Shown piece after piece: positions 3,855 to 57,389 of a stretch of DNA of 64,000 nt. Each line of letters opens with the position of its first letter. Within the stretch, counting starts at the first letter, position 1. The translations under genes were made by a program, and so were the position numbers. Under the pieces are notes generated by a model. It ran no database searches. It was given only the letters and a program-made list of their open reading frames with translations, and was not told where the DNA came from. Source of the DNA: Alphaproteobacteria bacterium. GTDB taxonomy: Bacteria; Pseudomonadota; Alphaproteobacteria; Rs-D84. Where the stretch lies: assembly GCA_015062485.1 (NCBI GenBank), contig SUUO01000003.1:28026-92025 (forward strand), in the 5' to 3' direction.

Positions 3855-4331
3855 TTAAAACGCCTCAAACGCACCAAAAATCTTGCCACGAAAATCTGAT
3901 GATGTTACCATATAGCTTGCACAATTAAGCGCACAACTTGTCACACACTCCAACGCCGAAGTATAAACAGTAGTATTAGCCGGCAATCTAACATAACTAG
4001 ATAAAACTGGTTCGGTCATCTGGCACCAACAATACTTATGCACACCACCCATCGCGTTTTTCAATGGTCCCACCGACGGAGACCCCGAAGCCACCGTTGA
4101 ACAATGTCCATACATCATAACCGCAACATTTTCGCCCGTATAGGGCAGTGTGCATACCACCCCATGTTTATACGCGTATTGGCTAAAAGACGAATATGCA
4201 CTTGAATGCACACACGTTGTTTGCGACGCCAGATCTGCTCTGAACGGTGAACAAATATAAGACCGCGTTGGCGTGGCAGCATTCGCAGACAAAACGCCCC
4301 CAATTAAACAAAAACATAAAAATCTTTTCAT
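3855..4331 (-). CDS. secreted Cys-rich L-family protein
   Basis: RBS AGGAGAAAGGAAAATG. Signal peptide MKRFLCFCLIGGVLSANA. KYCWCQM ... ECVTSCALNC. 9 Cys. ORF 3855..4355 trimmed to the ATG at 4331. Confidence 0.85.
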   Translation of the reverse strand: MKRFLCFCLIGGVLSANAATPTRSYICSPFRADLASQTTCVHSSAYSSFSQYAYKHGVVCTLPYTGENVAVMMYGHCSTVASGSPSVGPLKNAMGGVHKYCWCQMTEPVLSSYVRLPANTTVYTSALECVTSCALNCASYMVTSSDFRGKIFGAFEAF

Positions 4332-4628
4332 TTTCCTTTCTCCTGTTGTTATCAATCCAACGCACCCGCGTCAGATAATCAAAAACCACCATTCATCAGG
4401 TGGTCAGGAGGTTGGAAACAATCATCGGAATTGTGTCGCTTATTCAATATATTCGCAACCCTCCTGACGACAAATATCAGGAGTTTAAATTTACCGTCCG
4501 CAAGACAGATATCCATTGCGAACGCCGATGCACGGGTTTCCACACCCCATTATGACAAAAACCGCCATAACAAGTATATTATAGCGAATTCTTTCAACTT
4601 AGGCAAATACTAAGATAAATAAAAATTA
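4332..4628 (-). promoter_or_regulatory. leader module copy 1 (promoter + conserved structured 5' leader, shortened variant)
   Basis: Read on - strand: -35 TTGCCT (4601-4606), 17-nt spacer, -10 TATAAT (4578-4583). A/T motif at 4613-4628. Key 7-mers 4413-4419 (tGGAAac) and 4536-4542 (gtTTCCa). Lacks the internal T1 hairpin. Confidence 0.75.
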
Positions 4629-4677
4629 TGTCCCGAAAAATAAAAAATTTTGTAAATAATCCACCCGGCGGGATTTT

Positions 4678-7339: not shown

Positions 7340-7574
7340 AATAATTACCTTTTCCTGTATTTGATTTTAATGAATTTGTTATTGAAATGAAAGCCCAAAA
7401 ATACGCGGGCAGGGTGTAAAAAATCCTTAGGCGGCAATGCGCCAACAAAAAGCACTTGAAAAGATAAATTTATTTGAACTCATACCAATCATTATAATGC
7501 ACAATTATAAAATTTGCAAGTTTTACAAAGATAACTATTTATAGTATCCACCACTAGCCACTTACACTAACCAC

Positions 7575-7604
7575 TAAAAAATCCCGCCAATGGCGGGATT
7601 TTTT
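7575..7604 (-). terminator. intrinsic terminator after leuS
   Basis: ATCCCGCC aat GGCGGGAT flanked by an A6 run and a T run. Abuts the leuS stop codon. Confidence 0.85.
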
Positions 7605-9999
7605 ACTTTTTCACAACAAAATTTACCAATTTCTTTGGGACAACAATTGTCTTGATAATCGTTGCGCCATCTAACTTGGCACCCAATGCACTTTTTGCCA
7701 TTTCAACCAATGCATCTTCGGCCACGTCCGCCGGCGCAACAAATTCCGCACCACGTTTACCGTTAACGGACGCAACAATTGTCATCTCGGTCTCAACCAG
7801 TTTCGCCGCATCAAACGTTGGCCAATCTGACAACGCCAGCATTTCATCGTGTCCCAATTTTTCCCACATTTCTTCGGTCAAATGTGGTGCAAATGGATTT
7901 AACACGCGAACCAGCGTTTCGTACGCCGCCCGCGGCATACCACCCGAAAAGGCATTGATATATTCCATCATCGCAGAAATCGCCGTATTAAATTTCATAT
8001 TTTCAACGCGCTCTGTCACATCTGCGATTAACTTGTGCATCAGGCGTTCCTGGGCCCCGGTCATTGGTACATCTGTCAAATTATCAGACATATTTTCCAC
8101 ACGTTTCAAGAAACGCTGAACCCCGGCCAGTGCACCATCGGTCCATACCGCGTTATTTTCCCACGGCCCCAGTGACAACACCGAAACACGCCCCGCATCG
8201 GCCCCAACAGAATCAACCAAATCCGCCACCATAAAACCATTCCCACGCGACTTGGACATTTTATAGCCATCATTTCCCATCAACAACCCCTGGGCGGTAC
8301 GCTTTGCATATGGCTCTGGCGTATTAACCAATCCCAAATCATACAATGCGTGATGCCAAAAGCGCGAATAAATCAAATGACGTGTGTTATGCTCGTGCCC
8401 ACCGTTATAGTGTGTAACCGGCATCCAATTTTCCATCTGCTGACGCGAACAAAATTCTTTATCATTCTTTGGATCCAGATACCGCAAATAATACCACGAC
8501 GAACCCGCCCATCCCGGCATAGTATCCGTTTCACGTTTTGCAGGCGCCCCACAGTGCGGACACGTTGTATTTACCCAATCGGTTGCACGCGCCAATGGCC
8601 CTTCGCCATCATCGGTTGGTTTATAGTCCACCATATATGGTTGCATAATCGGCAATTCAGATTCATCAACCGGTACCCAGCCACATTTTTCACAATAAAC
8701 CATTGGGATTGGTTCACCCCAATACATCTGGCGCGAAAAACCCCAGTCTTTTAATTTATATTTTGTTGTGCCACGTGCAAAGCCGTGTTCCGTACCGTAT
8801 TTAATCGCCGCGGCAATGGCTTCTTCTTTGCCCATACCGTCCAAGAAAGATGAATTTATATGCGCACCGTCGCCTTCCCAAACCTTGTCTGGTTCACCAC
8901 CGGCTAAAACCGGGATAATTTCCAGACCGAATTTTTTCGCAAAGTCCCAGTCACGACTATCGTGCGCCGGCACCGCCATAATTGTCCCATACGCATAATC
9001 AACCAATACATAGTCCGATGTGAACACCGGGATTTCTTTGCCGGTATATGGATTCAATGCCATTATACCCTCTAAACGCACACCCGTCTTTTCCTTGGTC
9101 GCGTCTGTCCGTTCAATCTCAGATTTTGCGGCAGATTCTTTGATATACGCACGTACCGCATCCGCGTTTTTAATTTTACCTTCGTCCAGCCATTTTGCCA
9201 ACAACTTGTGTTCCGGGGCAATTACACAGAACGTCACACCAAATATAGTATCTACACGCGTTGTATAAACCGTCATAACATCATCCCCAACACGGAAATC
9301 TACATCCGCGCCGTGCGATTTACCAATCAGGTTTACCTCATCTTTTTTAATACGTTCATCAAAATCAACATCTTTTAAGCCGTCTAATAATTTATCGGCA
9401 TACTTAGACAACGCCAAATTCCACTGAACCTTCATTTTCTTTTCGACCGGTCCGTGACAGCGTTCACAACAACCATCTTCTAACTCTTCATTGGTCAGGT
9501 TTGTTTTGCACGCCGGACACCAATTCATCGGCAGGGCAGATTTATACGCCAACCCCGCCTTGTAAAACTGAATAAACATCCATTGTGTCCATTTAACATA
9601 TTCCGGATCAGACGTTGCAACACGTGTTTCCGGACTGACCGACCAACCAACACGATCAATCATTTTTGAATATGCTTCTATCAATTCCTTTGCAACGTCT
9701 GCCGGATGGCGTCCAATCTTGGTGGCATAGTGTTCACCGGCAATCCCCATTGCATCAAAACCCATTGGGAACAAAACATCATATCCACGTGCACGACGAA
9801 ACCGGGCCAAGACATCGATTCCCGAATAATTCATCATATGTCCCGCGTGCATCCCGGCACCGGACAAGAACGGAAATTCCACTAACGTATAAAAACGAGG
9901 CTTCGAACCATCATCTTTCGGTACAAACGCGCGTGCATCGCGCCAGCGTTTTTGCCATTTTGCCTCACGTTCGTGAATTTTTTTGATATCATCTGCCAT
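7603..9999 (-). CDS. leuS: leucine--tRNA ligase
   Basis: GMHAGHMMNY (HIGH-type) and KMSKSRGN motifs, plus CP1 editing region. 798 aa. Confidence 0.95.
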   Translation of the reverse strand: MADDIKKIHEREAKWQKRWRDARAFVPKDDGSKPRFYTLVEFPFLSGAGMHAGHMMNYSGIDVLARFRRARGYDVLFPMGFDAMGIAGEHYATKIGRHPADVAKELIEAYSKMIDRVGWSVSPETRVATSDPEYVKWTQWMFIQFYKAGLAYKSALPMNWCPACKTNLTNEELEDGCCERCHGPVEKKMKVQWNLALSKYADKLLDGLKDVDFDERIKKDEVNLIGKSHGADVDFRVGDDVMTVYTTRVDTIFGVTFCVIAPEHKLLAKWLDEGKIKNADAVRAYIKESAAKSEIERTDATKEKTGVRLEGIMALNPYTGKEIPVFTSDYVLVDYAYGTIMAVPAHDSRDWDFAKKFGLEIIPVLAGGEPDKVWEGDGAHINSSFLDGMGKEEAIAAAIKYGTEHGFARGTTKYKLKDWGFSRQMYWGEPIPMVYCEKCGWVPVDESELPIMQPYMVDYKPTDDGEGPLARATDWVNTTCPHCGAPAKRETDTMPGWAGSSWYYLRYLDPKNDKEFCSRQQMENWMPVTHYNGGHEHNTRHLIYSRFWHHALYDLGLVNTPEPYAKRTAQGLLMGNDGYKMSKSRGNGFMVADLVDSVGADAGRVSVLSLGPWENNAVWTDGALAGVQRFLKRVENMSDNLTDVPMTGAQERLMHKLIADVTERVENMKFNTAISAMMEYINAFSGGMPRAAYETLVRVLNPFAPHLTEEMWEKLGHDEMLALSDWPTFDAAKLVETEMTIVASVNGKRGAEFVAPADVAEDALVEMAKSALGAKLDGATIIKTIVVPKKLVNFVVKK

Positions 10000-10139
10000 A
10001 ATTTCGTCCTATGTGTTATTAAAATTACCTTAACCCCCAGTTTATATTTCACGCGCACATTATTCAAGTTTTTTTATAAAGATACACAAAAAAATCTAGA
10101 CTTTTTTGATTTTTCAATAAATACTTGTTACGGGGTGCA

Positions 10140-10316
10140 CATATGCCCCGGACATAGTGATGTGGCTTTGGCTTAGAACACCAAAACATTGAACGAAATG
10201 GCTATCACTTTATGTCCCGACCAAGCGGTCGGGATGTCGTTGCTCGCAAGACAACGAGGTCATCAATGTTTGACTGTTCTAACTCCCGACCACCACTTGC
10301 TATGGTGGTTTTTTTA
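10140..10316 (+). promoter_or_regulatory. candidate structured leader/attenuator or small RNA upstream of PAP2 gene
   Basis: TCCCGACC (10215-10222) and TCCCGACC (10284-10291) can both pair with GGTCGGGA (10227-10234). The second copy overlaps the terminator stem ACCACCA/TGGTGGT (10289-10309), which is followed by a T-run. Confidence 0.45.
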
Positions 10317-10339
10317 TTACAATCGAAAGGAAAGAAAAT

Positions 10340-10894
10340 ATGTCAAGACTTAGAACTCTTGTCGCGTTTTCTGTTTGCGGGGCATTGACTGCAAATGGCG
10401 CAATTGCGGGTGGACCTTTTTCATTTTCCAACCCAAATAAACTAAGCGATACATTTATGGTGATGACGGTGGCATACGCCCTGGGACTAAGCAGTACCGA
10501 AGATAACTTTGACGGTGCCATTGAATTAGCCACCAGTATTGCCGGTACCCAGATAGTTGCCGAAGGTATCAAGGGCCTTGAACTGGAACGCCGCCCAAAT
10601 GGTTCAGACTGGAAATCGTTCCCCAGTGGTCATTCCGCCGCCGCATTCAGCAGCGCAATGTTCGTCCACCGTCGTTACGGATGGAAACCGGCAATTATAC
10701 CATACGCAATGGCCGCGCTAACTGGTTGGGGCCGGGTACGTGCCGACGCGCACTATTGGCACGACGTCCTGGGCGGGGCGGCGGTATCTGCGCTTTTTAC
10801 ATGGATTGTTGTGGATAAATATGACGTGGCACAAAATATTACAGTTGCCGCCACCCCCAACGATATCCACGTCGGGTTCAAGACAGAATTTTAA
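10340..10894 (+). CDS. PAP2 superfamily (lipid) phosphatase, secreted/membrane
   Basis: Motifs ERRPNG, PSGHS, RVRADAHYWHD. RBS GAAAGGAAAG. Signal peptide present. Confidence 0.85.
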   Translation: MSRLRTLVAFSVCGALTANGAIAGGPFSFSNPNKLSDTFMVMTVAYALGLSSTEDNFDGAIELATSIAGTQIVAEGIKGLELERRPNGSDWKSFPSGHSAAAFSSAMFVHRRYGWKPAIIPYAMAALTGWGRVRADAHYWHDVLGGAAVSALFTWIVVDKYDVAQNITVAATPNDIHVGFKTEF

Positions 10895-11975: not shown

Positions 11976-12297
11976 GTGTTATTATTTATTTTTATTATTG
12001 TATTTTTTCTCTATACATTTTATAATCACGGTGTCAGCGGGATTTTCCACTGATGGGGTGTCAGAACCCGTGCATAACGCGTTTGGAATCGAAATCCAGC
12101 GCGCCATTGGCGTGTTTTTTCGTGTATTTTCCAAACGATAAACAAAAAAACTCCTGAACACACATAGGTGTCAGGAGGGTTGCGAATATATTGAATAAGC
12201 ACACAATTCGTTATGATTGTTCTGAACCTCCTGACCACTCGTTTATGCGCGGTGGTTTTTGTTTTTTCGCGAAGAACAAAGAAAGGGAGTGATACAT
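11976..12297 (+). promoter_or_regulatory. leader module copy 2 (only + strand copy)
   Basis: -35 TTGTAT 11998-12003, 17-nt spacer, -10 TATAAT 12021-12026. Key 7-mers 12061-12067 (tCAGAac) and 12219-12225 (gtTCTGa). T1 hairpin GCGCC att GGCGTG + T6. Confidence 0.8.
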
Positions 12298-12759
12298 ATG
12301 AAAAAACTTTTAACTTTAACCGCGGTTGGTGCGTTACTTGCCACACCCGCGAATGCAGTCCAAAAATGCGTACAGTTGCCCACAAAAGGCTCAGAGTGTT
12401 CTTTTAGCAACAGCTCTTTCAGCATTGAAATACCCATAAGCTGCAGTGCTGCTGGGATATCTATGAAGGCTATAGCGTTGTGTGCTTCTGCTTATGCTGA
12501 CAAAGGAGGTACGGTATCAGCAGGCTTAGTCGCAAACACAATAGATGGGGAAACTATGTCTTATGGTCCCTACTATTGTTGGTGCAAACTTGTTCAGCCG
12601 GTTGAATCAAAGTGGGTATTGGCTTCTAGTACAAGCGACGACGATTTCAGTTCCTGTTCTTATTCATGCTCCCAAAAATGCGCCAAAGCGATGCGGGCCC
12701 CTAAAGATGTTGAACTTAATATCTGGCCAATAATGCTGGAAAATTTATTAGTTGATTAA
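12298..12759 (+). CDS. secreted Cys-rich L-family protein
   Basis: MKKLLTLTAVGALLATPANA signal peptide. YYCWCKLVQPVESKWVL ... SSCSYSCSQKC. 9 Cys in the mature part. Confidence 0.9.
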   Translation: MKKLLTLTAVGALLATPANAVQKCVQLPTKGSECSFSNSSFSIEIPISCSAAGISMKAIALCASAYADKGGTVSAGLVANTIDGETMSYGPYYCWCKLVQPVESKWVLASSTSDDDFSSCSYSCSQKCAKAMRAPKDVELNIWPIMLENLLVD

Positions 12760-17598: not shown

Positions 17599-18045
17599 TT
17601 AAATTGCATCAACTAAAATTTCATCCATCAAACTCTCCATTTCTAAACCACTAGCACAGCGTTGAGCGCAATATTTTGCACAGCTTAATGAATCGGTAAA
17701 TGTGTGATTTAGCATCCATTTTGATAAAAATGGCGTTAATACACGACACCAACATGCGGTTAAATTCACGCTTGTTGCATCAGCGCTAACAACAAACAAT
17801 TCTTCATCAGAAAGAACATCGAATCGTCCATACCCCTGGTCTTGGGCGCAAACTCCAATGCCTTTTACGGAGATTTCATTGGAGGTATCATAATTACACG
17901 TCGCTCTCCAACCTATTATTGAGTTTTCTCCACCCATACCAGAGCGACATTCAGTGCCAGCCGCCAATCCCACGCATTGCACCACCGCCATTGCGGGGAC
18001 GGTCAAAATTGCACCAACCGCGGTTAAAGTTAAAATTTTTTTCAT
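17599..18045 (-). CDS. secreted Cys-rich L-family protein
   Basis: RBS AAGGAG. MKKILTLTAVGAILTVPAMA signal peptide. ACWCRVLTPFLSKWML ... LSCAKYCAQRC. 9 Cys. ORF 17599..18162 trimmed. Confidence 0.9.
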   Translation of the reverse strand: MKKILTLTAVGAILTVPAMAVVQCVGLAAGTECRSGMGGENSIIGWRATCNYDTSNEISVKGIGVCAQDQGYGRFDVLSDEELFVVSADATSVNLTACWCRVLTPFLSKWMLNHTFTDSLSCAKYCAQRCASGLEMESLMDEILVDAI

Positions 18046-18379
18046 TGTCTTATCTCCTTTCTGCTTTAAAAAAAAACAAAACCACACGTAAAACGGGTGG
18101 TCAGGAGGTTCGAAACAATTATAAGGAATTGTGTGCTTATTTTGTGCGGACACACCGCCCATTATTCACAACCCTCCTGACCTTTTATAGCCAGGAGACA
18201 TTTCATCCAGGACCACAAACGAAAAAACACGCCATATGGCGCGCCCGGTTCGGATATTTCGTTTTGTTCCAGACGCCTTATATCGGGTTTCGACACCCCA
18301 TCACGACCATCGATCGTAACAAGCAAATTATAACCAAATATTTCATCCAACGCAAATACTTAGATAAATAAAAGTTTAT
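18046..18379 (-). promoter_or_regulatory. leader module copy 3
   Basis: Read on - strand: -35 TTGCGT (18350-18355), 17-nt spacer, -10 TATAAT (18327-18332). A/T motif 18362-18379. Key 7-mers 18110-18116 (tCGAAac) and 18287-18293 (gtTTCGa). Confidence 0.8.
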
Positions 18380-18556
18380 CGCAGGAAGTACAAACAGAAT
18401 TTTTTGCAAAAAAAATTCTGTCATCCCGTGGCTTGACCACGGGACCCAGGTCATATTTCCTTTTTATTTGCTTTCACCTGGATTCCGGGGTCAAGCCCCG
18501 GAATGACAAAAACGTAAAACGTTTTTGTTAAATAAACTTTTATTTTTATAAGTATT
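18362..18556. repeat. MITE-like palindromic element (copy M1) bounded by inverted AGATAAATAAAAGTTTA motifs
   Basis: Four consecutive hairpins: CAGAATTTTTTGCAAAAAAAATTCTG, CCCGTGG cttga CCACGGG, ATTCCGGGG tcaag CCCCGGAAT, ACAAAAACG taaaa CGTTTTTGT. Near-identical to 25658..25865 in reverse orientation. Confidence 0.8.
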
Positions 18557-24911: not shown

Positions 24912-25358
24912 TTAATCAGATAAATTCGTAAAAAAAGCGGTTCTGTATGCTTGATAGCTAGAATGAATCAAAGAATCATAACAATAAGACGCGCAAGTTC
25001 GCAGGCAAGAATCACGTGTAAGATCGTCGTCTGCTAACACCCATTTAGATACGGCTGGACTTACCATTTTGCACCAGCAATAATCATTAGAATATGAAGC
25101 ATCACTTGCAGCAGTATAAACAATAGTATCTTTTTGATCTTGAGTTTTGCCTAATGTATCTGCACACACTGCTATAAATTGAACAGGAATCTCTTCATTG
25201 TTAGTGCCATAACATGTTGCGGTTAAAGAAGAAGCATAATCAGCTGGTTCTGTTCCCGTACATGTTTTTGTTGCATCCAATGCCACACATTTTTGTACCG
25301 CCAACGCGGGTGCGGCAAGTAATGCACCAACCGCGGTTAATGTTAAAAGTTTTTTCAT
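24912..25358 (-). CDS. secreted Cys-rich L-family protein
   Basis: ATG 25358 with RBS AAGGAGA. MKKLLTLTAVGALLAAPALA signal peptide. DYCWCKMVSPAVSKWVL ... DSCLRTCASYC. 9 Cys. Confidence 0.9.
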   Translation of the reverse strand: MKKLLTLTAVGALLAAPALAVQKCVALDATKTCTGTEPADYASSLTATCYGTNNEEIPVQFIAVCADTLGKTQDQKDTIVYTAASDASYSNDYCWCKMVSPAVSKWVLADDDLTRDSCLRTCASYCYDSLIHSSYQAYRTAFFTNLSD

Positions 25359-25674
25359 TTTCAATCTCCTTTCTTTTGTTTTATTCGCGAAAAAACAAAA
25401 ACCACACGTTTTTCACGAGTGGTCAGGAGGTTGGAAACAATCAATACGAATTGTGCTGCTTATTCAATATATTCACAGCCCCCCTGACACTAAATGCTCA
25501 GGAGATATTTGTCATTTGGTTTTCACACGAAAAAACACGCCATCGGCGCGTCGGATTTCGTTTCCAAACGCGTATTGCACGGGTTTCCACACCCCATTAT
25601 GACCATCGATCATAACAAACAAATTATAACCAAATATTTCATCCAACGCAACGACGAAGATAAATAAAAGTTTA
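25359..25674 (-). promoter_or_regulatory. leader module copy 4
   Basis: Read on - strand: -35 TTGCGT (25646-25651), 17-nt spacer, -10 TATAAT (25623-25628). A/T motif 25658-25674. Key 7-mers 25432-25438 (tGGAAac) and 25583-25589 (gtTTCCa). Confidence 0.8.
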
Positions 25675-25865
25675 GTGGGGTAATCAGTTTACAAAAACGT
25701 TTAACGTTTTTGTCATTCCGGGGCTTGACCCCGGAATCTAGGTGAAAGCAAATAAAAAAAGAAATATGACCTGGGTCCCGTGGTCAAGCCACGGGATGAC
25801 AGAATTTTTTTGCAAAAAATTCTGTTCGTACTTCCTGCGATAAACTTTTATTTATATAAGTAATT
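25658..25865. repeat. MITE-like palindromic element (copy M2), inverted relative to M1
   Basis: Same four hairpins as 18362..18556 in reverse order. Bounded by AGATAAATAAAAGTTTA (25658-25674) and its inverted copy ATAAACTTTTATTTATATAAGTAATT (25840-25865). Confidence 0.8.
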
Positions 25866-25906
25866 ATGTATTCCTCCACTTACCACTAACCACTTACACT
25901 AATCAC

Positions 25907-25936
25907 TAAAAAATCCCGCCGAATGGCGGGATTTTT
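25907..25936 (-). terminator. intrinsic terminator after rlmE
   Basis: A6-TCCCGCC gaa TGGCGGGA-T6. Confidence 0.85.
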
Positions 25937-26595
25937 TATCCACGGAACCCCAGTGCAACAATAAACATTTCCACACTGTCCTTGCGTGACGATGGTGGTT
26001 TGATATGATGCACAGATTCAAATTTTTCTTTGATTTGTTTTAATAAGTCATTTGTTGTTCCACCGGTAAAGGACTTGCACACAAACGTGCCACCCGGCTT
26101 TAATGCACGTAACGCAAAATCAAACGCATATTCCAATAAAACCATCTGACGAATATGATCCGTCTTTTTATGTCCAACCGTATTCGGCGCCATATCAGAT
26201 ACAATAACATCAGCCGTACCATTACCGGTTTCATCGGGCGACAAGCCCAACTTTTCTTCCAGCCAGCGCAATGCCGCATCAGATGTAAAATCGCCCTGAT
26301 ATGTTTCCACACCAACGATTGGCGATATTTCCAACAAATCCATCGCAAAAACTTTCGATTTCGGATACGTACGCGCAATGTATTGCGACCAGGAACCCGG
26401 TGCCGCACCCAAATCAACAACAACCTGGCCATTGCGCAAGAATTTAAACTTCTCGTTCATTTCAATCAGTTTATATGCCGCACGTGCGCGATAGCCATCC
26501 TTTTGTGCACGTGCAACATATGGATCCGCCGCCTGGCGTTGCAGCCACGCGACCGATGATTTCTTTGCCGCAATTTTCTTATTTGTTATTTTCAT
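25936..26595 (-). CDS. rlmE: 23S rRNA (uridine2552-2'-O)-methyltransferase RlmE/FtsJ
   Basis: WLQRQAADPYV, VVDLGAAPGSWSQ, VSDMAPN motifs. TAATG overlap with the upstream gene. Confidence 0.92.
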   Translation of the reverse strand: MKITNKKIAAKKSSVAWLQRQAADPYVARAQKDGYRARAAYKLIEMNEKFKFLRNGQVVVDLGAAPGSWSQYIARTYPKSKVFAMDLLEISPIVGVETYQGDFTSDAALRWLEEKLGLSPDETGNGTADVIVSDMAPNTVGHKKTDHIRQMVLLEYAFDFALRALKPGGTFVCKSFTGGTTNDLLKQIKEKFESVHHIKPPSSRKDSVEMFIVALGFRG

Positions 26596-45085: not shown

Positions 45086-45631
45086 CTATTCTGTTGTTGT
45101 GGTTGAAGACGCTTCCTCTTCACCAGCGTAGGTCTTATAACTATTTTCTACGGGCGAAGATGTTGCGCCATCATAATAACAATTATCGGTAAAAATAAAT
45201 GTTCCCGTTTCATCAGAACGCTCAACATCTGCTTTCTTATAACATTCGTTTGCACTGACCGCACCTGTATCACTAGTATATTGAGCAGGGCAACTGGAAC
45301 AACTTCCGCCATTATTATACTGCCCACTATCACACGGCCGGCAAGAGTCGTGATACCATCTAAACAGATACCGTCCATTTGCCCAATATGATTGACATGT
45401 AGATTTTCTTAATTTTGTCGGATCATCTGGACAAAGACAATCGATATATCCGTTTGTACCCGTATAAAAATCTTCTGTCCTTGTTGCGCTAATGCAGTAT
45501 GAATCAGCATAAATTGCGGTGTCCCCTTCCCAACATCTAATTTTTACCGTCGTTGTTTCAAACGCGAAAGACTTTGAATATCCCAATGTCATCATCGCCG
45601 TAAAACCCGCCACGAAATAAGTTTTATTCAT
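45086..45631 (-). CDS. secreted Cys-rich protein with GCC2_GCC3/ephrin-receptor-like Cys repeat and S-type C-terminal motif
   Basis: Signal peptide. CRPCDSGQYNNGGSCSSCPAQYTSDTGAVSANEC. ...DETGTFIFTDNCYY. Acidic/Ser-Thr tail. Confidence 0.8.
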   Translation of the reverse strand: MNKTYFVAGFTAMMTLGYSKSFAFETTTVKIRCWEGDTAIYADSYCISATRTEDFYTGTNGYIDCLCPDDPTKLRKSTCQSYWANGRYLFRWYHDSCRPCDSGQYNNGGSCSSCPAQYTSDTGAVSANECYKKADVERSDETGTFIFTDNCYYDGATSSPVENSYKTYAGEEEASSTTTTE

Positions 45632-45934
45632 ATTTCAATCTCCTGTTTGTTAAAAACAAAACCACGCGTTTTTCACGAGTGGTCAGGAGGTTGGAAACAA
45701 TCAAGAAGTATTGTGCTGCTTATTCAATATATTCACAGCCCCCCTGACACTAAATGCTCAGGAGATATTTGTCATTTGGTTTTCACACGAAAAAACACGC
45801 CATTGGCGCGTCGGATTTCGTTTCCAAACGCTTCTTGCACGGGTTTCCACACCCCATTATGGCAAACCACCATAACAAGTATATTATAACTGAATGTTTT
45901 TCTTTGTTCAATACTTAGATAAATAAAAGTTTAT
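45632..45934 (-). promoter_or_regulatory. leader module copy 5
   Basis: Read on - strand: -35 TTGAAC (45906-45911), 17-nt spacer, -10 TATAAT (45883-45888). A/T motif 45917-45934. Key 7-mers 45692-45698 (tGGAAac) and 45843-45849 (gtTTCCa). Differs from copy 4 at only about ten positions over ~190 nt by eye. Confidence 0.8.
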
Positions 45935-45935
45935 G

Positions 45936-46030
45936 TTAGTGGTTAGTGTAAGTGATTAGTGATGGCACTATGATGTGCGGCATTTGCCACACACAAACAC
46001 TATCCACTAGCCACTCACACTAATCACTAA
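45936..46030. repeat. inverted pair of TTAGTG-type short-period repeats next to the rho terminator
   Basis: TTAGTGGTTAGTGTAAGTGATTAGTGATGG (45936-45965) versus CCACTAGCCACTCACACTAATCACTAA (46004-46030). The same tail occurs at 7548-7577, 25875-25908 and 49242-49270. Confidence 0.7.
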
Positions 46031-46057
46031 AAAATCCCGCGTAATGCGGGATTTTTA
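46029..46057 (-). terminator. intrinsic terminator after rho
   Basis: A6-TCCCGC gtaa TGCGGGA-T5. Confidence 0.85.
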
Positions 46058-47326
46058 TTACTGATTCATAGACGCAAAGAAATCATCATTCGTTTTCGTC
46101 ACACGTAATTTATCCAACAGGAATTCCATTGCCTCTAACGTGCCCATCGGATTAATTATGCGACGCAACACATATGTCTTGGCCAGTTGTTCTTTGCCCA
46201 CCAACAGGTCTTCCTTGCGTGTGCCGGACTTGGTAATATCAATCGCCGGATAAACACGTTTATCAGACAATTTTCTGTCCAAGATGATTTCACTGTTACC
46301 GGTACCCTTGAATTCTTCGAAAATAACTTCATCCATCTTGGACCCCGTATCAACCAATGCCGTCGCAATAATGGTCAGTGATCCACCGCCCTCGATATTA
46401 CGTGCCGCACCAAAGAAACGTTTTGGACGCTGCAACGCGTACGCATCAACACCACCGGTTAAAACCTTGCCACTGGATGGAACACAGGTATTATACGCGC
46501 GACCCAAACGTGTAATAGAATCCAACAAGATAACAACGTCTTGTCCGGCCTCTACCAAACGTTTTGCTTTTTCAATAACCATTTCTGCGACCTGAATATG
46601 ACGTGCCGCCGGTTCATCAAATGTCGAAGAAATAACCTCTCCCTTGACACTGCGTTGCATATCGGTCACCTCTTCGGGACGTTCATCAATCAGCAAAACG
46701 ATTAACTTAACATCCGGATAGTTTGTCGCAATAGAATGCGCAATATTTTGCAGCATAACCGTCTTACCGGTACGTGGCGGTGCAACGATTAACGAACGCT
46801 GTCCCTTACCCGTTGGGGAAATCAGGTCAATAACACGCGCAGACAGATTACGTCCTTTGTCTGTGTCGGTTGGGACCTCCATCTGTAACTTCTCGTCCGG
46901 GTACAGTGGCGTCATATCATCAAACGACACACGATGTTTCAGTTTTTCAGGATTGTCGCCATTAACGCGTTCAATCGTTTCCAACGCGAAATAGCGTTCG
47001 GTTTCCGCCGCCGGGGCTTGAATTTGCCCCTCGACATAATCACCGGTTTTCAAGCCGTATTTTTTAATTAAATTTGGCGACACATACAAATCATCCGGCC
47101 CCGCCAGATAGTTTGATTCCGGCGCACGCAAGAAACCAAATCCATCCTGCATCCGTTCCAGAACACCATCACCAATCAACGTCACCTTTTTATCCGCGGC
47201 GAACACACGCATAACCGCAAAACGCAGTTGCTGTACATTCAGTTGCGCTGGATTTTCAATTCCCATATCTTCTGCCATTTTCAGCAGTTGCTGGGGCGAT
47301 TTCGCCTTTAACTCATTAATATGCAT
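46058..47326 (-). CDS. rho: transcription termination factor Rho
   Basis: N-terminal RNA-binding domain, Walker A APPRTGKT, and the RecA-like ATPase. 422 aa. Confidence 0.97.
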
Positions 47327-47957: not shown

Positions 47958-47987
47958 CAAAAAAATCCCCCATTTGGGGGATTTTTT
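47958..47987. terminator. bidirectional intrinsic terminator
   Basis: A8-ATCCCCC attt GGGGGAT-T6 between ssb and 47986..48912. Confidence 0.85.
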
Positions 47988-48912
47988 AATCAATAGTGTA
48001 ATGACACATTCCACCGCCCGATATATATGTACCATATTCATCTTTAAATGTACCAGATTCCCCACCGCCAACATCAACATAACAATCGGTTGGATTTATT
48101 GCACCGGGTGCACTGGTCGCATTTTCCGGCGAAACATCGTGATCACCCGGTAATGCATTGCACGCCATATTACCACCAGAAACAGTCATCGTTTCCACAT
48201 CCACCCTAACTTTGATTCCACCTGGGCAATAATCACCAGGTACACATTGCTCTTCCAATAGTTCCCCCGTATTCGTATCAATAGTTACATAATATCCAGA
48301 ATTAGAATATCCATAACAATCGCTTATCTCTGTGCGCGCACCATCAGAATGTATCAAAATTGGATGAAGCTCGTCGCACGGCACCACAATCCCATACATA
48401 TAAATATAACCATCTGGCAGACCTCCTGAAAAATCTGCACAAACATTCAATGCTTCGTCCATTGTTTCAAACCACATTCCGTTTTCAAATTCATCCTCTG
48501 TCGCGGGGATCCGTACAAGCACATAACCTTCATTACATTCCCCCATTGCTCTAAAACCAATAATCTGGCCATTAGTATCAAAATACGTAACAACATAATA
48601 GTTTCCTTTCTCGTCATAAAAATAACGAGACAAAGTAAGATCTTGACACTGTTCCAAACTTGTTAGCCCATTATTCACAAAGACATCACACGCGAATTGC
48701 CCATAATCAACATCACAAGAATCTTGATATTGCGTATTATCCTCGGGACACGGCTTGCATTCTGTTGCATCAGGCACATCATTATACGTATGTCCCGGAC
48801 ACGGCTCACACACACCAGACGACGTAACATAATAACCAACACCACATATTTCGGCATATCCTGGTGCGGTAAAAGCAAATAATAATAAAACCGTAAAACA
48901 AATCTTTTTCAT
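47986..48912 (-). CDS. secreted Cys-rich protein with ephrin-receptor-like Cys repeats and S-type C-terminal motif
   Basis: Signal peptide MKKICFTVLLLFAFTAPGYA. CGVGYYVTSSGVCEPCPGHTYNDVPDATECKPCPEDN. C-terminal GTFKDEYGTYISGGGMCHY. Confidence 0.8.
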   Translation of the reverse strand: MKKICFTVLLLFAFTAPGYAEICGVGYYVTSSGVCEPCPGHTYNDVPDATECKPCPEDNTQYQDSCDVDYGQFACDVFVNNGLTSLEQCQDLTLSRYFYDEKGNYYVVTYFDTNGQIIGFRAMGECNEGYVLVRIPATEDEFENGMWFETMDEALNVCADFSGGLPDGYIYMYGIVVPCDELHPILIHSDGARTEISDCYGYSNSGYYVTIDTNTGELLEEQCVPGDYCPGGIKVRVDVETMTVSGGNMACNALPGDHDVSPENATSAPGAINPTDCYVDVGGGESGTFKDEYGTYISGGGMCHYTID

Positions 48913-49226
48913 TTTTGTCTTTCTCCTGTTTGTTATAAAAAACAAAACCACCGCGCATAAACGAAGTGGTCAGGAGGTTCAGAACAATCAAGAAGAATTG
49001 TGTGCTTATTCAATATATTCGCAACCCTCCTGACACCTATGTGTTCAGGAGTTTTTATTTATCGTTTGGAAAGTACACGAAAAAACACGCCACCGGCGTG
49101 CCGGATTTCGATTCCAAACGCTTCTTGCACGGGTTCTGACACCCCATTATGGCAAAACCACCATAACATACTAATTATAACCGATTGTTTCCATTTGCGC
49201 AAATACTTATAGAAATAAAAGTTTAT
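48913..49226 (-). promoter_or_regulatory. leader module copy 6
   Basis: Read on - strand: -35 TTGCGC (49197-49202), 17-nt spacer, -10 TATAAT (49174-49179). A/T motif 49209-49226. Key 7-mers 48979-48985 (tCAGAac) and 49133-49139 (gtTCTGa). T1 hairpin CACGCC ggt GGCGTG + U6 at 49080-49100. Confidence 0.8.
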
Positions 49227-49268
49227 CCTAGTGCTTCTACTCTACACTAACCACTTACACTAATCACT

Positions 49269-49298
49269 AAAAAACCCGCCGGATGGCGGGATTTTTTT
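49269..49298 (-). terminator. intrinsic terminator after autotransporter gene
   Basis: CCCGCC ggat GGCGGG with flanking A5/T7 runs. Confidence 0.85.
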
Positions 49299-52200
49299 AG
49301 AACCTATACGATCCAGAAACCTTGATATTATGCAACTGCATATCATTATTGTACTGATATCTGTAATCAATACCAAATTGCAGGCCATTTGCAGACAAGA
49401 ATTCAAATCCACCACCAATATTTGCCCACAATGGATCGATTTCTATGTCATATTCGCTGAACACGTTGGCCGATGCAAATTTATATTTCGCAAAATCTGG
49501 CGCACCCAACACATCATATTCAACACCAATTGTCGCATATGGTCTAATCTGGAACCAAGCCGACGGATAAATACGTTTCTGGGCGGTCAAAGAATACCCC
49601 GGCGTCAACATCAAATATCCATCGGATTCAAAATCCATATAATTTTCACCGGCGGCCTTTTCCGTCACATCAAAGCCAAAGTTATAACCCGCGCGCGCAT
49701 ACAAGTTACCAACGACATACTGATTTAACCAATCGTGCATCAGGCCCCATTCCGTCGTCAATGCAAACGCAGTACCCGTTCCATCAATCGTATCCATAAA
49801 TGTCATATGGCGCGTTGTATCAATAAAGTGCATATCCATAAACGCATTACCATACAGGCGGAACTTATGCCCCAACGTCTTCATCAAATATGCCCCCAGG
49901 CCAACATTCGTATCCGCCACATCCACAGATACATTGCCGACAATATTCTGGCCCGGTAAATAGCCCAAATCCATATCATCCGCGTTATCTGATGACATAT
50001 GCGACACACGTCCCGTCAGCCCCAGAATCAATGTATCAGATGACTGCCAATCAAAACCACCCGACAATTCAAAGCGATTACCATACACACGCTTGTCATC
50101 GGTGACATTCTGGCTAAACATACCGAAATCAAAATCCGCCCAGGCTTTCTTTAAATTCCGGTTACGATTCCAGATAAATTCATCAAACATTCTGTCTTCG
50201 AAATTACGGAACGATGTATGTTCATTCAACGCGATTGCGCCCGCAATTTGTTCAATTTCACGTGGCTGAACCAGGCGACTGAACGGCACAAACGCAGCAC
50301 CATTTGCCGTTTCAACGTAATGTTCCATACGGTTGTAAAGTTCCGTCATCAGCGTTTCAACATTTGTACCCTCAAAAATCGCCGGTATAACTTCTATTGG
50401 TGATTTATTAAAGAATCCCATATTCAACAACTGCCCCGCGATAAGGTTATCCAGTGCACCGGCGGCGACATATTCGCCCGCGGTGTATTCTGGCTGGCGT
50501 GCGACAATTGGCTGAATCCGATTATCTTCAATCAAAACCGGCCCACCAAAGCGCGGATCAAACACGACGTAAAGGCTGTCTGCGGCACCACTGTTATCTG
50601 TATCACGCGTTGTGATATAAGCCCCCAAATTGTCCGGATTTAGCGCAACGCACGTCGTATTACCCGCATTACAGAACAACACATTCAAATTACGGATTTT
50701 TTCAATATCACTAAATTCAGATAACCCCTGCTCTGCCTTTAATAACCATATCGCCGTTTCCGCGGATACATTGGACACATCCGTAAAACGCAATCCAATT
50801 TGGCCATCGGCCAAAACATCCGAATTCAGCGCCAACGCACTATATTCCGTCCCAGACATAAACTTGCCATTAACCTGAATCAACGCCGCACCATCGGTCG
50901 CATTTGTAATTTGCCCCAATGTCGCATCATTATTCAAACTGACCGACGACCAATAATTGCGCGTGGTCGAATTAAGGCCCGGCGTTACATTATATGGTAA
51001 TATCGCCGCCAATAACTGACTGTTTGCATCAAATATATAATCACCATCAACCGCCATTTGTTCCAGATTCCAAATCTTGGTTCCGCCAGAGATATTTCCA
51101 TTAACCTCTAAATCCAACCAATTTGTATCCGGATTTGCGGCAATTGTTAAATCCGTCGCATTTATATCGCCATTAACCGTAACATCACTGCTTAAAATCT
51201 GCATAGCGCCAGATGTCTGATTGATTCCCGCGACCGTAACATTCGATGCCGTAATCGTATAATCATCGGCGGTGATTCCGATATCATTATCACGCAAAGT
51301 TCCCGTATAATTCTGATATAAATTGCCGTCCGTTGTTAATTCAGAATCCAATGTCCAGCCCGCGCCATATAACTGAATTGTGCCGCCATCCACAACCAAT
51401 CCAGCCATATCAACAATGTCATCCCCCGAATCCAGGGACACAGAGCCACTATTGCTAAGTGTCGCCATTGTGATGCCGTGCGCGGCATCCAATACCAATG
51501 CACCACTGTTTATAATATTATCAAATGATACTGCATCCGAACTGTCTAACTTGAACGCGGCATAATTGCGGAAAGTATACAAATTATCCACGTCCCCACT
51601 AATGTTATTAAATGTTTCACCAATGAAATTAACCGTCGCCAGTGATACAGATGTGCCAACCGTCATATCGCCATCAATTGTAATATCCCCAGAAATATCA
51701 TACGTTCCAACATTCGAATCGGCAACGAATCCACCGGCGGTCAATCCCGTGGAACTAAATACAACCTCGTCCGACAGTATGTTTAACATCCCCGTCTTGC
51801 CCGTTCCCTGGTTCAAGACGCCCGCAACATTAACCGCGCCACCAAATGTTGCCCCATTCAAAGCATTTAAATTAAATGTACCACCGGTAATATCCATACC
51901 ATATTGCACATCCAACAGATTCGCATCTATATCCGTCAATGCACCCGCAGATTCAATCGCCGTCGCATAAACATCGCCAACCGCATCGATATCTAATTCA
52001 TACGCGGTCGCACCATTTTTCAAAATACCAATATTGATATCATCCCCAGAATTTAAAATAACATACCCATTATTTGTGACATCGGCCAAATCAATCCCGG
52101 CGGCCTTAATATCAAGCCACCCCGCAACAGTCATATCATCAACGATATCAACGTCACCGACCGCGTCTATATCCAAATATCCATTTGGCGCAACCGCCCC

Positions 52201-56596: not shown

Positions 56597-57037
56597 CTAA
56601 TACGATAATAAGTTATCTAACATATACACTAAACCATATTGCGCATAATCTGCACTAGTACCGGCTAATCCTTCAAAATCCACACAACGAAAGGCACAAT
56701 TTCCGCTACAATATTGCCCATAATTCCACCCCGTAAACACCCATTTAGACACTGCCGGAGTCAGCAAACGACACCAACAATACCCAACAGGGTTATCACC
56801 GTCATCTTGTTGCAAATTTTCTGCCGTCTCTCCTGTATAATCACCCCCTTGTTTCGAACAAAAATAAGTACCGCGATACGTATCTGTACCACACTTTATG
56901 GTCCAATCAGAATCGTTATAGTCCGTTCCCCCGCTACAACTAGTTTGATTTGTAACATTTTTTACGCATTGGGTTGCGGCATTCGCAGACGCGGCCATTA
57001 TTGCACCGACCGCGGTTAATGTTAAAAGTTTTTTCAT
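56597..57037 (-). CDS. secreted Cys-rich L-family protein
   Basis: RBS AAGGAG. MKKLLTLTAVGAIMAASANA signal peptide. GYCWCRLLTPAVSKWVF ... QYCSGNCAFRC. 9 Cys. ORF 56597..57088 trimmed. Confidence 0.9.
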   Translation of the reverse strand: MKKLLTLTAVGAIMAASANAATQCVKNVTNQTSCSGGTDYNDSDWTIKCGTDTYRGTYFCSKQGGDYTGETAENLQQDDGDNPVGYCWCRLLTPAVSKWVFTGWNYGQYCSGNCAFRCVDFEGLAGTSADYAQYGLVYMLDNLLSY

Positions 57038-57356
57038 TTGTTTACTCCTTTTCTTGTTTTTCGCGAAAAAACAAAAACCACCGCGCAAAACGAAGTGGTC
57101 AGGAGGTTAGTAACAATCTCTAAGTATTGTGTGCTTATTCAATATATTCGCAACCCTCCTGACCAGTAAGATTCAGGAGTTTTTTTATTTAACGTTCGGG
57201 TTCAGATACGAAAAAACACGCCATCGGCGCGCCGGATTTCGCTTCCAAACGCTTAGAGCACGGGTTACTACACCCCATTATGGCAAACCGCCATAACACA
57301 CGTATTATAACCGATTGTTTCCATTTGCGCAATTGCAATGATAAATAAAAGTTTAT
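57038..57356 (-). promoter_or_regulatory. leader module copy 7
   Basis: Read on - strand: -35 TTGCGC (57327-57332), 17-nt spacer, -10 TATAAT (57304-57309). A/T motif 57340-57356. Key 7-mers 57108-57114 (tAGTAac) and 57264-57270 (gtTACTa). Confidence 0.8.
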
Positions 57357-57389
57357 CTAAGTGATTAATAGTATCCGACACTCACCACT

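Follow-up and report, generated by a model that had tools for sequence, protein, structure and literature searches.

Attenuators of the classical terminator/antiterminator type, among them the expression platforms of riboswitches and the trp, pyr and T-box systems, carry a GC-rich hairpin followed by a U run in a 5' leader, and the 5' arm of this hairpin is shared with a mutually exclusive upstream helix which is made first, the two states lying a few kcal/mol apart. In Listeria, SreA and SreB are RNAs which are terminated by an S-adenosylmethionine (SAM) riboswitch of known ligand and act in trans. In Bartonella, nine clustered Brt RNAs of ~200 nucleotides (nt) each precede an XRE gene (Trp), and a terminator/riboswitch model has been proposed for them (PMC5387305). 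Here we analyzed a hairpin with a U run, termed T1, which lies in the middle of a 5' leader (copy 6) within a stretch of 64,000 nt from contig SUUO01000003.1 (assembly GCA_015062485.1), hereafter referred to as the window. T1 resembles the classical attenuators in each of the respects given above, and its sequence features lead us to regard it, with restrained confidence, as probably a conditional attenuator, an add-on which forms the tip of a variable arm within a conserved leader of ~235 nt.

The window derives from a gut metagenome-assembled genome (MAG) which is assigned to Candidatus Enterousia or something closely related to it; its Rho protein is also encoded on a contig of GCA_054276835.1 and on gut metagenome contigs of the European Nucleotide Archive (ENA). 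Enterousia is a member of order Rs-D84, with genomes mostly below 1 Mb and most metabolism lost (PMC12306168). The seven leader copies listed by the initial annotation were all found, as ~300-bp cassettes of promoter and leader (alignment A1) with leader identities of 65-94%, and an eighth, divergent leader, caught only in part by the profile search, was added to them, giving at least eight copies of this structured RNA inside 64 kb. A pattern combining the promoter with GGGGUGU returned 32 loci, all of them from Enterousia or from alphaproteobacterial gut MAGs, the hosts being human, sheep, goat and deer. When the window and the fetched loci were searched with a profile, 45 full leaders were obtained, of which the 39 distinct ones make up alignment A2, and a metagenome scan for T1-bearing leaders returned five loci, two of which were true members of the family.

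Judged by its sequence, T1 carries every feature of an intrinsic terminator. A terminator scan of copy 6 gave eight pairs (five of them G-C), a loop of three and a T run, and the same result was obtained at 45794-45812 and 57215-57233. As had been proposed, a GC hairpin with a U run is present in six of the seven listed copies, here placed ~86 nt after the predicted transcript start, and copy 1 lacks it, having a plain extended hairpin with no U run at that place. With the conserved TATAAT of copy 6 at 49174-49179, transcription is predicted to start at ~49166, so that an RNA ending at T1 would be ~84-88 nt long. The T1 sequences first reported were mostly accurate, apart from the loop of copy 5, which is AAU, and the 5' arm of copy 7, which is GGCGCGCC. 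Pattern search and regular expression located six occurrences of the module in the window, where none would be expected by chance. The U run is directly 3' of the stem, with U6-7 in the six window copies and U5 in leaders L036 and L033, and the gene-end terminators of the window have the same design of A-tract, GC stem and U-tract as T1. Among the distinct leaders, 16 of 39 contain a GGCGUG-U5+ module, T1 being counted as present in 16-17 of 39; in L025 an unrelated GC hairpin, GGGCGCAAUUGCGCC-AUUUUUU, occupies the T1 position as an independent version. Across 16 leaders, which come from ~10 MAGs, and two further, divergent ones from metagenomes, the module hardly varies, and the T1 stem is 98.5% paired in 17 leaders. 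The remaining leaders have a plain arm hairpin or other inserts (unrelated ones in L012, L017, L022, L024 and L032) with no U run.

The upstream helix that had been suggested to share nucleotides with the T1 5' arm, and hence to exclude it, was likewise recovered. When copy 6 RNA was folded as a transcript ending before the T1 3' arm, the minimum-energy fold paired GCGUUUGGA, within a segment here called X, with UCCGG-CACGC in a local partner called X'1, and this hairpin used six of the eight nt of the T1 5' arm. X:X'1 was the minimum-energy fold at this stage in 16 of 16 folded T1-bearing leaders, with X of the form GCGUYNN and X'1 ending in (G/A)CGC; it occupied five or six of the eight 5'-arm nt, and the free energy of the duplex ranged from -10 to -15.7 kcal/mol. 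Once the T1 3' arm was added, T1 was the optimum in leaders of the short-arm type (copies 2, 4, 5, 6 and 7), and X:X'1 stayed the minimum-energy fold in copy 3, L010, L013, L019 and L023. With each structure forced in turn, E(T1) - E(anti) was -1.4 to -7.0 kcal/mol, in favour of T1.

With respect to conservation of the competing hairpin, X:X'1 is kept in seven X sequence types, two of them metagenomic. These pair X GCGUUUGGA with X'1 UCCGRCGC, GCGUCUGUGGA with UCCA..GGCGC, GCGUCUGG(A) with (U)CCGGGCGC, GCGUCUGGAAA with UUUCAGGCGC, GCGUCCAUGU with ACAUGACGC, GCGUCUU with AAGACGC, and GCGUCAA with UUGAUGC, and the variable parts of the two strands stay complementary throughout (UUUGGA/UCCGR, CAUGU/ACAUG, CUU/AAG, CAA/UUG, CUGGAAA/UUUCAG). 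Compared with dinucleotide shuffles, z-scores for nine representatives ran from -1.3 in copy 6 to -3.9. On alignment A3, 87.5% of the cells were paired, versus 81% in shuffles (0 of 500 reached the observed value) and 29-68% with slid partners; four of the eight pairs change on both sides, in only six cells.

X has a third partner, X'2, which is transcribed after T1 and forms with X a 9-bp helix at the base of the arm, and eight of these nine pairs change on both sides across the family. The whole arm folds into a single long rod, with X:X'2 at its base, CGAAA:UUUCG (which takes in some of the U run) in the middle and the T1 stem at its end. In the subset of leaders with the module, the order is X - CGAAA - X'1/T1 5' arm - loop - T1 3' arm - U6 - CG - X'2. 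The mutual exclusion which had been claimed for T1 and its upstream helix was upheld, with the revision that X has this third partner: in full-length RNA the T1 hairpin coexists with X:X'2 and CGAAA:UUUCG in the rod.

From these features the following sequence of events can be proposed for T1 as a conditional attenuator. As the polymerase advances, X would pair first with X'1, tying up five to six nt of the T1 5' arm and so acting as an antiterminator. When the T1 3' arm emerges, T1, which is more stable by 1.4-7 kcal/mol, would form only by displacing X while the polymerase is still on the U run. A fraction of transcripts would stop there, and release of a ~86-nt RNA from T1 is possible; the remainder would read through, after which X would re-pair with X'2 and CGAAA with UUUCG, leaving T1 as the harmless tip of a rod. 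Anything occupying X, or a slowed polymerase, would be expected to raise termination, as would changing X from GCGUUUGGA to GCGAAACCA. T1 would in this way set or tune the share of transcripts which reach a second control point, formed by elements e1/e2/e3, a second terminator (T2) and the Shine-Dalgarno (SD) sequence. No sequence complementary to X was found upstream of it.

A number of observations weigh against a conditional attenuator at T1. In copy 6 itself, X:X'1 has a z-score of -1.33 and 21 of 200 shuffles fold as well, which is not above chance, so that support for the competing hairpin comes from the family. Swapping X'1 between types moved the mean only from -11.8 to -9.9 kcal/mol, and the cognate partner was best in three of nine rows; this small cost of ~2 kcal/mol arises because the GCG:CGC core dominates, and the covariation of X:X'1 is therefore suggestive but falls short of being decisive. 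In the T1 stem no pair has changed on both sides, so that covariation is absent there. All six U of the run find use in the rod (two in G-U pairs, one as a bulge, three in CGAAA:UUUCG), and the U run could consequently be structural. T1 is missing in over half of the 39 leaders, some of them before the same protein family, which means that it is not essential to leader function. Upstream of T1 no sensor or ligand pocket could be named and no Rfam riboswitch was matched. Finally, termination at T1, and hence its function, is what we infer from these sequence features. The suggestion that T1 is a riboswitch or attenuator platform was upheld as regards the terminator features and the competing helix. 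T2, however, is universal and lies beside the SD, whereas T1 is an insert which the variable arm may or may not carry at its tip; T1 is therefore not the main expression platform of the leader.

Several of these observations would be expected if T1 were an extension of the arm with a structural role only, X:X'1 masking an accidental terminator which is always read through, with no regulation at T1. The continuous rod with every U in use, the strong covariation of the arm-base helix, the coherent change of the middle helix in L038 (CAUAUAAA with UUUGUAUAUG, read by eye), the variability of the arm with its unrelated inserts, and an antiterminator which forms first in every case all speak for such a role. 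A purely structural arm would, however, have no need for an uninterrupted U5-7 immediately after a GC-rich stem, a combination which is easily avoided; yet 18 leaders retain stem and U run in this arrangement and L025 has it again with another stem, and the two states lie so close in energy that they appear tuned, which is not what a safe mask would look like. While we consider this explanation unlikely, it is the one that deserves most weight after that of a conditional attenuator.

The leader into which T1 is inserted contains two long-range helices and can adopt two alternative global folds; the positions of its elements in copy 6, and those of T1 in the other copies, are collected in the table below. 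The first of these helices, Pa, joins the variable nt after GGGGUGU by 6 bp to the six nt just 5' of AACCUCCUGAC, and its strands are perfectly complementary in 42 of 43 leaders, in 13 variants. What had been described as a variable tetranucleotide loop, possibly carried on a small RNA, is in fact one strand of Pa, and that description was discarded. The second helix, Pb, has 7 bp and joins the segment after CCGUG to the loop of hairpin H3. Each of the seven window copies has a unique combination of Pa and Pb. The sole Pa mismatch was seen in L017 (1054-1390, -), where CAGAAC stands against GUAGUC (3/6) with Pb still paired, and this leader looks like a recombinant of two leaders.

Table. Positions within the window of T1, its pairing partners and the remaining leader elements. 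Elements named without a copy number belong to copy 6.
Feature	Position	Strand	Details
T1 of copy 6	49080-49102	-	Hairpin GGCACGCC-GGU-GGCGUGUU at 49084-49102; U run 49080-49085; UUUUCG after hairpin
T1 of copy 2	12098-12120	+	Leader 11985-12314; pattern search
T1 of copy 3	18222-18245	-	Leader 18029-18382; pattern search
T1 of copy 4	25530-25552	-	Leader 25343-25677; pattern search
T1 of copy 5	45790-45812	-	Leader 45620-45934; pattern search and terminator scan
T1 of copy 7	57211-57233	-	Leader 57022-57358; pattern search and terminator scan
Copy 1	4317-4629	-	Full leader; arm is plain hairpin GCGUUCGCAAUGGAUAUCUGUCUUGCGGACG, T1 absent
Eighth, divergent leader	~10100-10342	+	T2 present, T1 absent; read by eye
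X, GCGUUUGGAA	49112-49121	-	5' strand of early competing hairpin and of late arm-base helix
UCGAAA	49106-49111	-	Loop of early hairpin; in full arm, CGAAA with UUUCG (49076-49082), including end of U run
X'1, UCCGGCACGCC	49095-49105	-	Local partner of X; 6-nt overlap with T1 5' arm
X'2, UUCCAAACG	49063-49071	-	Distal partner of X after T1; 9-bp arm base
Promoter	49174-49224	-	Conserved AT-rich upstream element AAACTTTTATTT, weak -35 and TATAAT; fixed 33-nt spacing (alignment)
P1 hairpin	49147-49166	-	Predicted 5' end; 7/7 pairs change on both sides
Pa 5' strand, CAGAAC	49133-49138	-	Pairs with 48980-48985 (GUUCUG)
Pb 5' strand, CAAGAAG	49121-49127	-	Pairs with 48989-48995 (CUUCUUG), loop of H3
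Leader second half	48969-49051	-	Comparative fold; elements e1, e2, H4, H3, Pa 3' strand, e3
e1, CUCCUGA	49045-49051	-	
e2, GUCAGGAGGGUU	49023-49034	-	Alternative partners e1 or e3
H4	49003-49023	-	
H3 with Pb 3' strand	48984-49001	-	
Pa 3' strand	48980-48985	-	
e3, AACCUCCUGAC	48969-48979	-	
T2	48937-48969	-	CCAC...GUGG and U4GU6; in every family member, directly before SD
SD	48923-48927	-	
ATG	48910-48912	-	

Through Pa and Pb the 5' domain is docked to the second half of the leader. In this docked fold, which covers the whole leader with P1, Pa, Pb, the variable arm, hairpin A (CUCCUGA with UCAGGAG), H4 and T2 (hairpin and U5GU6), 90% of the cells are paired, compared with 77% in column shuffles and 41-52% with slid partners, and 38 pairs changed on both sides, a number reached in 0 of 500 shuffles. 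The second fold consists of P2 (GGGU:ACCC), H3 and hairpin B (GUCAGGAGG:CCUCCUGAC), is conserved to the same degree (99.6% paired) and shows double changes at the level of leader classes. P2 shares nucleotides with Pa, H3 does so with both long-range helices, and hairpins A and B compete with each other, so that the leader has two global folds which are alternatives. By predicted minimum energy, 27 of 28 leaders had the docked fold as their optimum or no more than 2.6 kcal/mol away from it, and when both folds were forced the hairpin-B fold was 0.6-10.7 kcal/mol above the docked one in 26 of 27 leaders and 2.6 kcal/mol below it in L010. The junction sequences AUGGGGUGU, CCGUG and GAAUAUAUUGAAUAA are conserved across leaders. 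A clean on/off read-out through sequestration of the SD by e3 was considered; in constrained folds of 28 leaders the SD could pair with whichever of e1 and e3 is free, several states lying within a few kcal/mol. The eighth leader retains Pa (UAGAAC/GUUCUA) and Pb (ACAUUGA/UCAAUGU), and its e-triplet reads UCCCGACC / GGUCGGGA / UCCCGACC instead of the usual CUCCUGA / UCAGGAGG / CCUCCUGA; its e3 does not match its weak SD, and this speaks against a pairing of e3 with the SD in all leaders.

Two candidate antiterminators of T2 were considered and rejected. P1 is of three or more types between copies while the T2 5' arm is constant, and the extension of hairpin B into the T2 5' arm, seen in L029 and copy 7, is missing from copies 4 and 6 and hence not general. 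The 5' strand of P1 in copy 6, together with its loop (GGUGGUUUUG, 49147-49166), is identical to the T2 3' arm and the start of its U run (48937-48950), an identity which is lost in the other P1 types. At the DNA level, an inverted repeat or inverton was dismissed, as frequent G-U pairs argue that the functional molecule is RNA of the gene-sense strand, and a dispersed palindromic repeat was dismissed as well, as the window search placed the T1 module only inside leaders.

The long-range helices bear directly on what a T1-ended RNA might do. Were T1 an efficient terminator, the main product could be a ~86-nt trans-acting small RNA (sRNA) which binds, in read-through leaders of matching sequence, to the 3' strands of Pa and Pb; the leader would then have a dual function, as with SreA/SreB or in the model proposed for Bartonella Brt1. 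The predicted fold of the 91-nt T1-ended RNA exposes the Pa 5' strand in the hexaloop of P2 and leaves the Pb 5' strand and X unpaired; the combination of Pa and Pb is specific to each window copy; and for the Brt RNAs of Bartonella, which are abundant, ~200 nt long and located before XRE genes, action in cis as well as in trans has been proposed (PMC5387305). On the other hand, complementarity within Pa and Pb is equally strict in leaders without T1, from which the 5' domain cannot be released, a cis partner is always present, stand-alone genes for the 5' domain were not found in 310 kb of related DNA, and the antiterminator is kinetically favoured. We consider such an sRNA improbable. A more speculative proposal, to which we give slightly less credence still, is that the leader is a split lock-and-key device in which T1 frees the 5' domain as a ~86-nt "key" RNA addressed to a matching "lock". 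The variable 5' strands of Pa and Pb on the key would then address the H3 loop and the Pa 3' strand in the second halves of leaders, and the result would be a combinatorial code of RNA-RNA addresses choosing, from a large set of secreted Cys-rich proteins, those to be expressed.

It might also be argued that T1 has no function, hairpin and U run being conserved only through recent duplication, as the leader identity among window copies and the invariant pairs of the T1 stem would allow. The module is, however, shared by MAGs of human, sheep, goat, roe deer and water deer origin and by divergent leaders of metagenomes in which the arm sequences around it differ, while neighbouring segments such as the arm base, Pa, Pb and the loops have changed freely. 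Since T1 persists across MAGs of five host species as its flanks diverge, we judge duplication alone to be very improbable. Least credible of all is a trp-type leader-peptide attenuation, in which a ribosome translating from the conserved AUG-GGG-UGU over X would free X'1 and let T1 form: an AUG (GUG in class 2 leaders) does precede GGGUGU in all leaders and the frame crosses X and T1 in copies 2, 4, 5, 6 and 7, but this explanation was rejected because 42 of 43 leaders lack an SD-like sequence, the start codon comes immediately after the 3' strand of P1 and only a few nt from the P1 helix, the frame varies from 6 to 78 codons and in three T1-bearing leaders (copy 3, L010 and L019) ends before X, 38-53 nt before the T1 3' arm, and the peptide is not conserved beyond MGC-x-(N/D)-P, codons 4-5 following their RNA pairing partner and not being synonymous. 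The start of this mini-ORF lies at 49139-49146 (-) in copy 6 and is invariant apart from the GUG of class 2; its conservation is probably at the RNA level.

The genes downstream of the leaders mostly encode small secreted Cys-rich proteins, which matched no Pfam or NCBIfam family, and a second leader class (class 2) heads genes for 76-aa XRE helix-turn-helix (HTH) proteins. Two of the Cys-rich proteins contain ephrin-receptor/TNFR-like Cys repeats. A conserved signal peptide, MKKLLTLTAVGA..., is common to the downstream-gene 5' ends at 17964-18049, 25277-25362 and 56956-57041, which indicates that the genes behind the leaders form a family of paralogues coding for secreted Cys-rich proteins of ~150 aa. 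Between a gene for a 1776-aa autotransporter-like protein and ssb, the loci L002 (1814-2385) and L003 (1793-2386) of related strains have a class 2 leader with a 76-aa XRE HTH gene, and the same locus in the window (47986-49227) has leader copy 6 with a gene for a 308-aa Cys-rich protein instead; the leader and gene units thus behave like exchangeable cassettes. A conserved segment of ~40 nt rich in CACTAA/TAGTG-type repeats (ACCACTTACACTAATCACTAAAAAA) was seen at 7543-7606, 25875-25938, 45996-46059 and 49236-49299, where it adjoins bidirectional terminators and, in at least three of the four cases, is located shortly before a leader promoter; a regulator might bind to this segment.

For a host with a genome below 1 Mb, keeping at least eight leaders within 64 kb represents a large investment in RNA-based control, and the controlled genes (secreted Cys-rich proteins, in part ephrin-receptor/TNFR-like, and small XRE regulators) are probably genes of host or partner interaction. 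A terminator with a competing helix is, taken alone, a familiar kind of device. The leader family is apparently undescribed, and what stands out more than T1 are its long-range helices and its capacity for alternative folds; the comparative evidence for the two global folds is unusually clean. A terminator switch with three partners, which is present in some leaders and absent from otherwise equivalent ones, in turn provides a natural system for studying the gain of an attenuator module.

When compared with known RNA families, the whole window gave only two tRNAs at the Rfam gathering scores, and a search of copy 6, copy 3 and class 2 with E up to 10 gave no meaningful match, the single candidate being a sub-threshold one to sRNA-Xcc1 (RF02221) in copy 3. 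The second half of this copy (18092-18181, -) aligns end to end with the family at 32.9 bits (E 1.6e-4), the gathering score being 53; no such match was obtained with copy 6, class 2, L013, L023 or L026. Both RNAs have a 9-bp outer stem, GGAGG/CCUCC-like arms, two inner hairpins and a 6-nt linker, and the H4 loop of copy 3 carries an extra hairpin. Like the Enterousia leaders, sRNA-Xcc1 is multi-copy and occurs upstream of small genes; unlike them it is a stand-alone RNA of 88 nt, and the match in copy 3 excludes the T1 region.

The likeness of T1 to the classical attenuators, set out above, has its limits. We could assign to T1 neither a sensing domain or ligand nor a tRNA, a protein site or a leader peptide, and T1 further departs from these systems in that the 5' strand of the antiterminator has a third partner downstream, the terminator hairpin persists in the mature fold, the module is optional within the family, and a second, universal terminator follows ~115 nt later. 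With SreA and SreB the Enterousia leader would have in common that a product of premature termination could itself be a regulator. The Bartonella study (PMC5387305), in which these two RNAs are also cited, reports Brt as specific to Bartonella and describes no mid-leader terminator, and Brt RNAs precede XRE genes whereas most Enterousia leaders precede secreted Cys-rich proteins. Likened by description only, Brt RNAs and Enterousia leaders are both alphaproteobacterial, numerous, clustered and highly similar structured RNAs with a terminator-like end directly before a small gene, and the Enterousia class 2 leaders also precede XRE genes. Going by the published description, the Brt/Trp system would appear to be the closest described biological arrangement to the leaders which carry T1.

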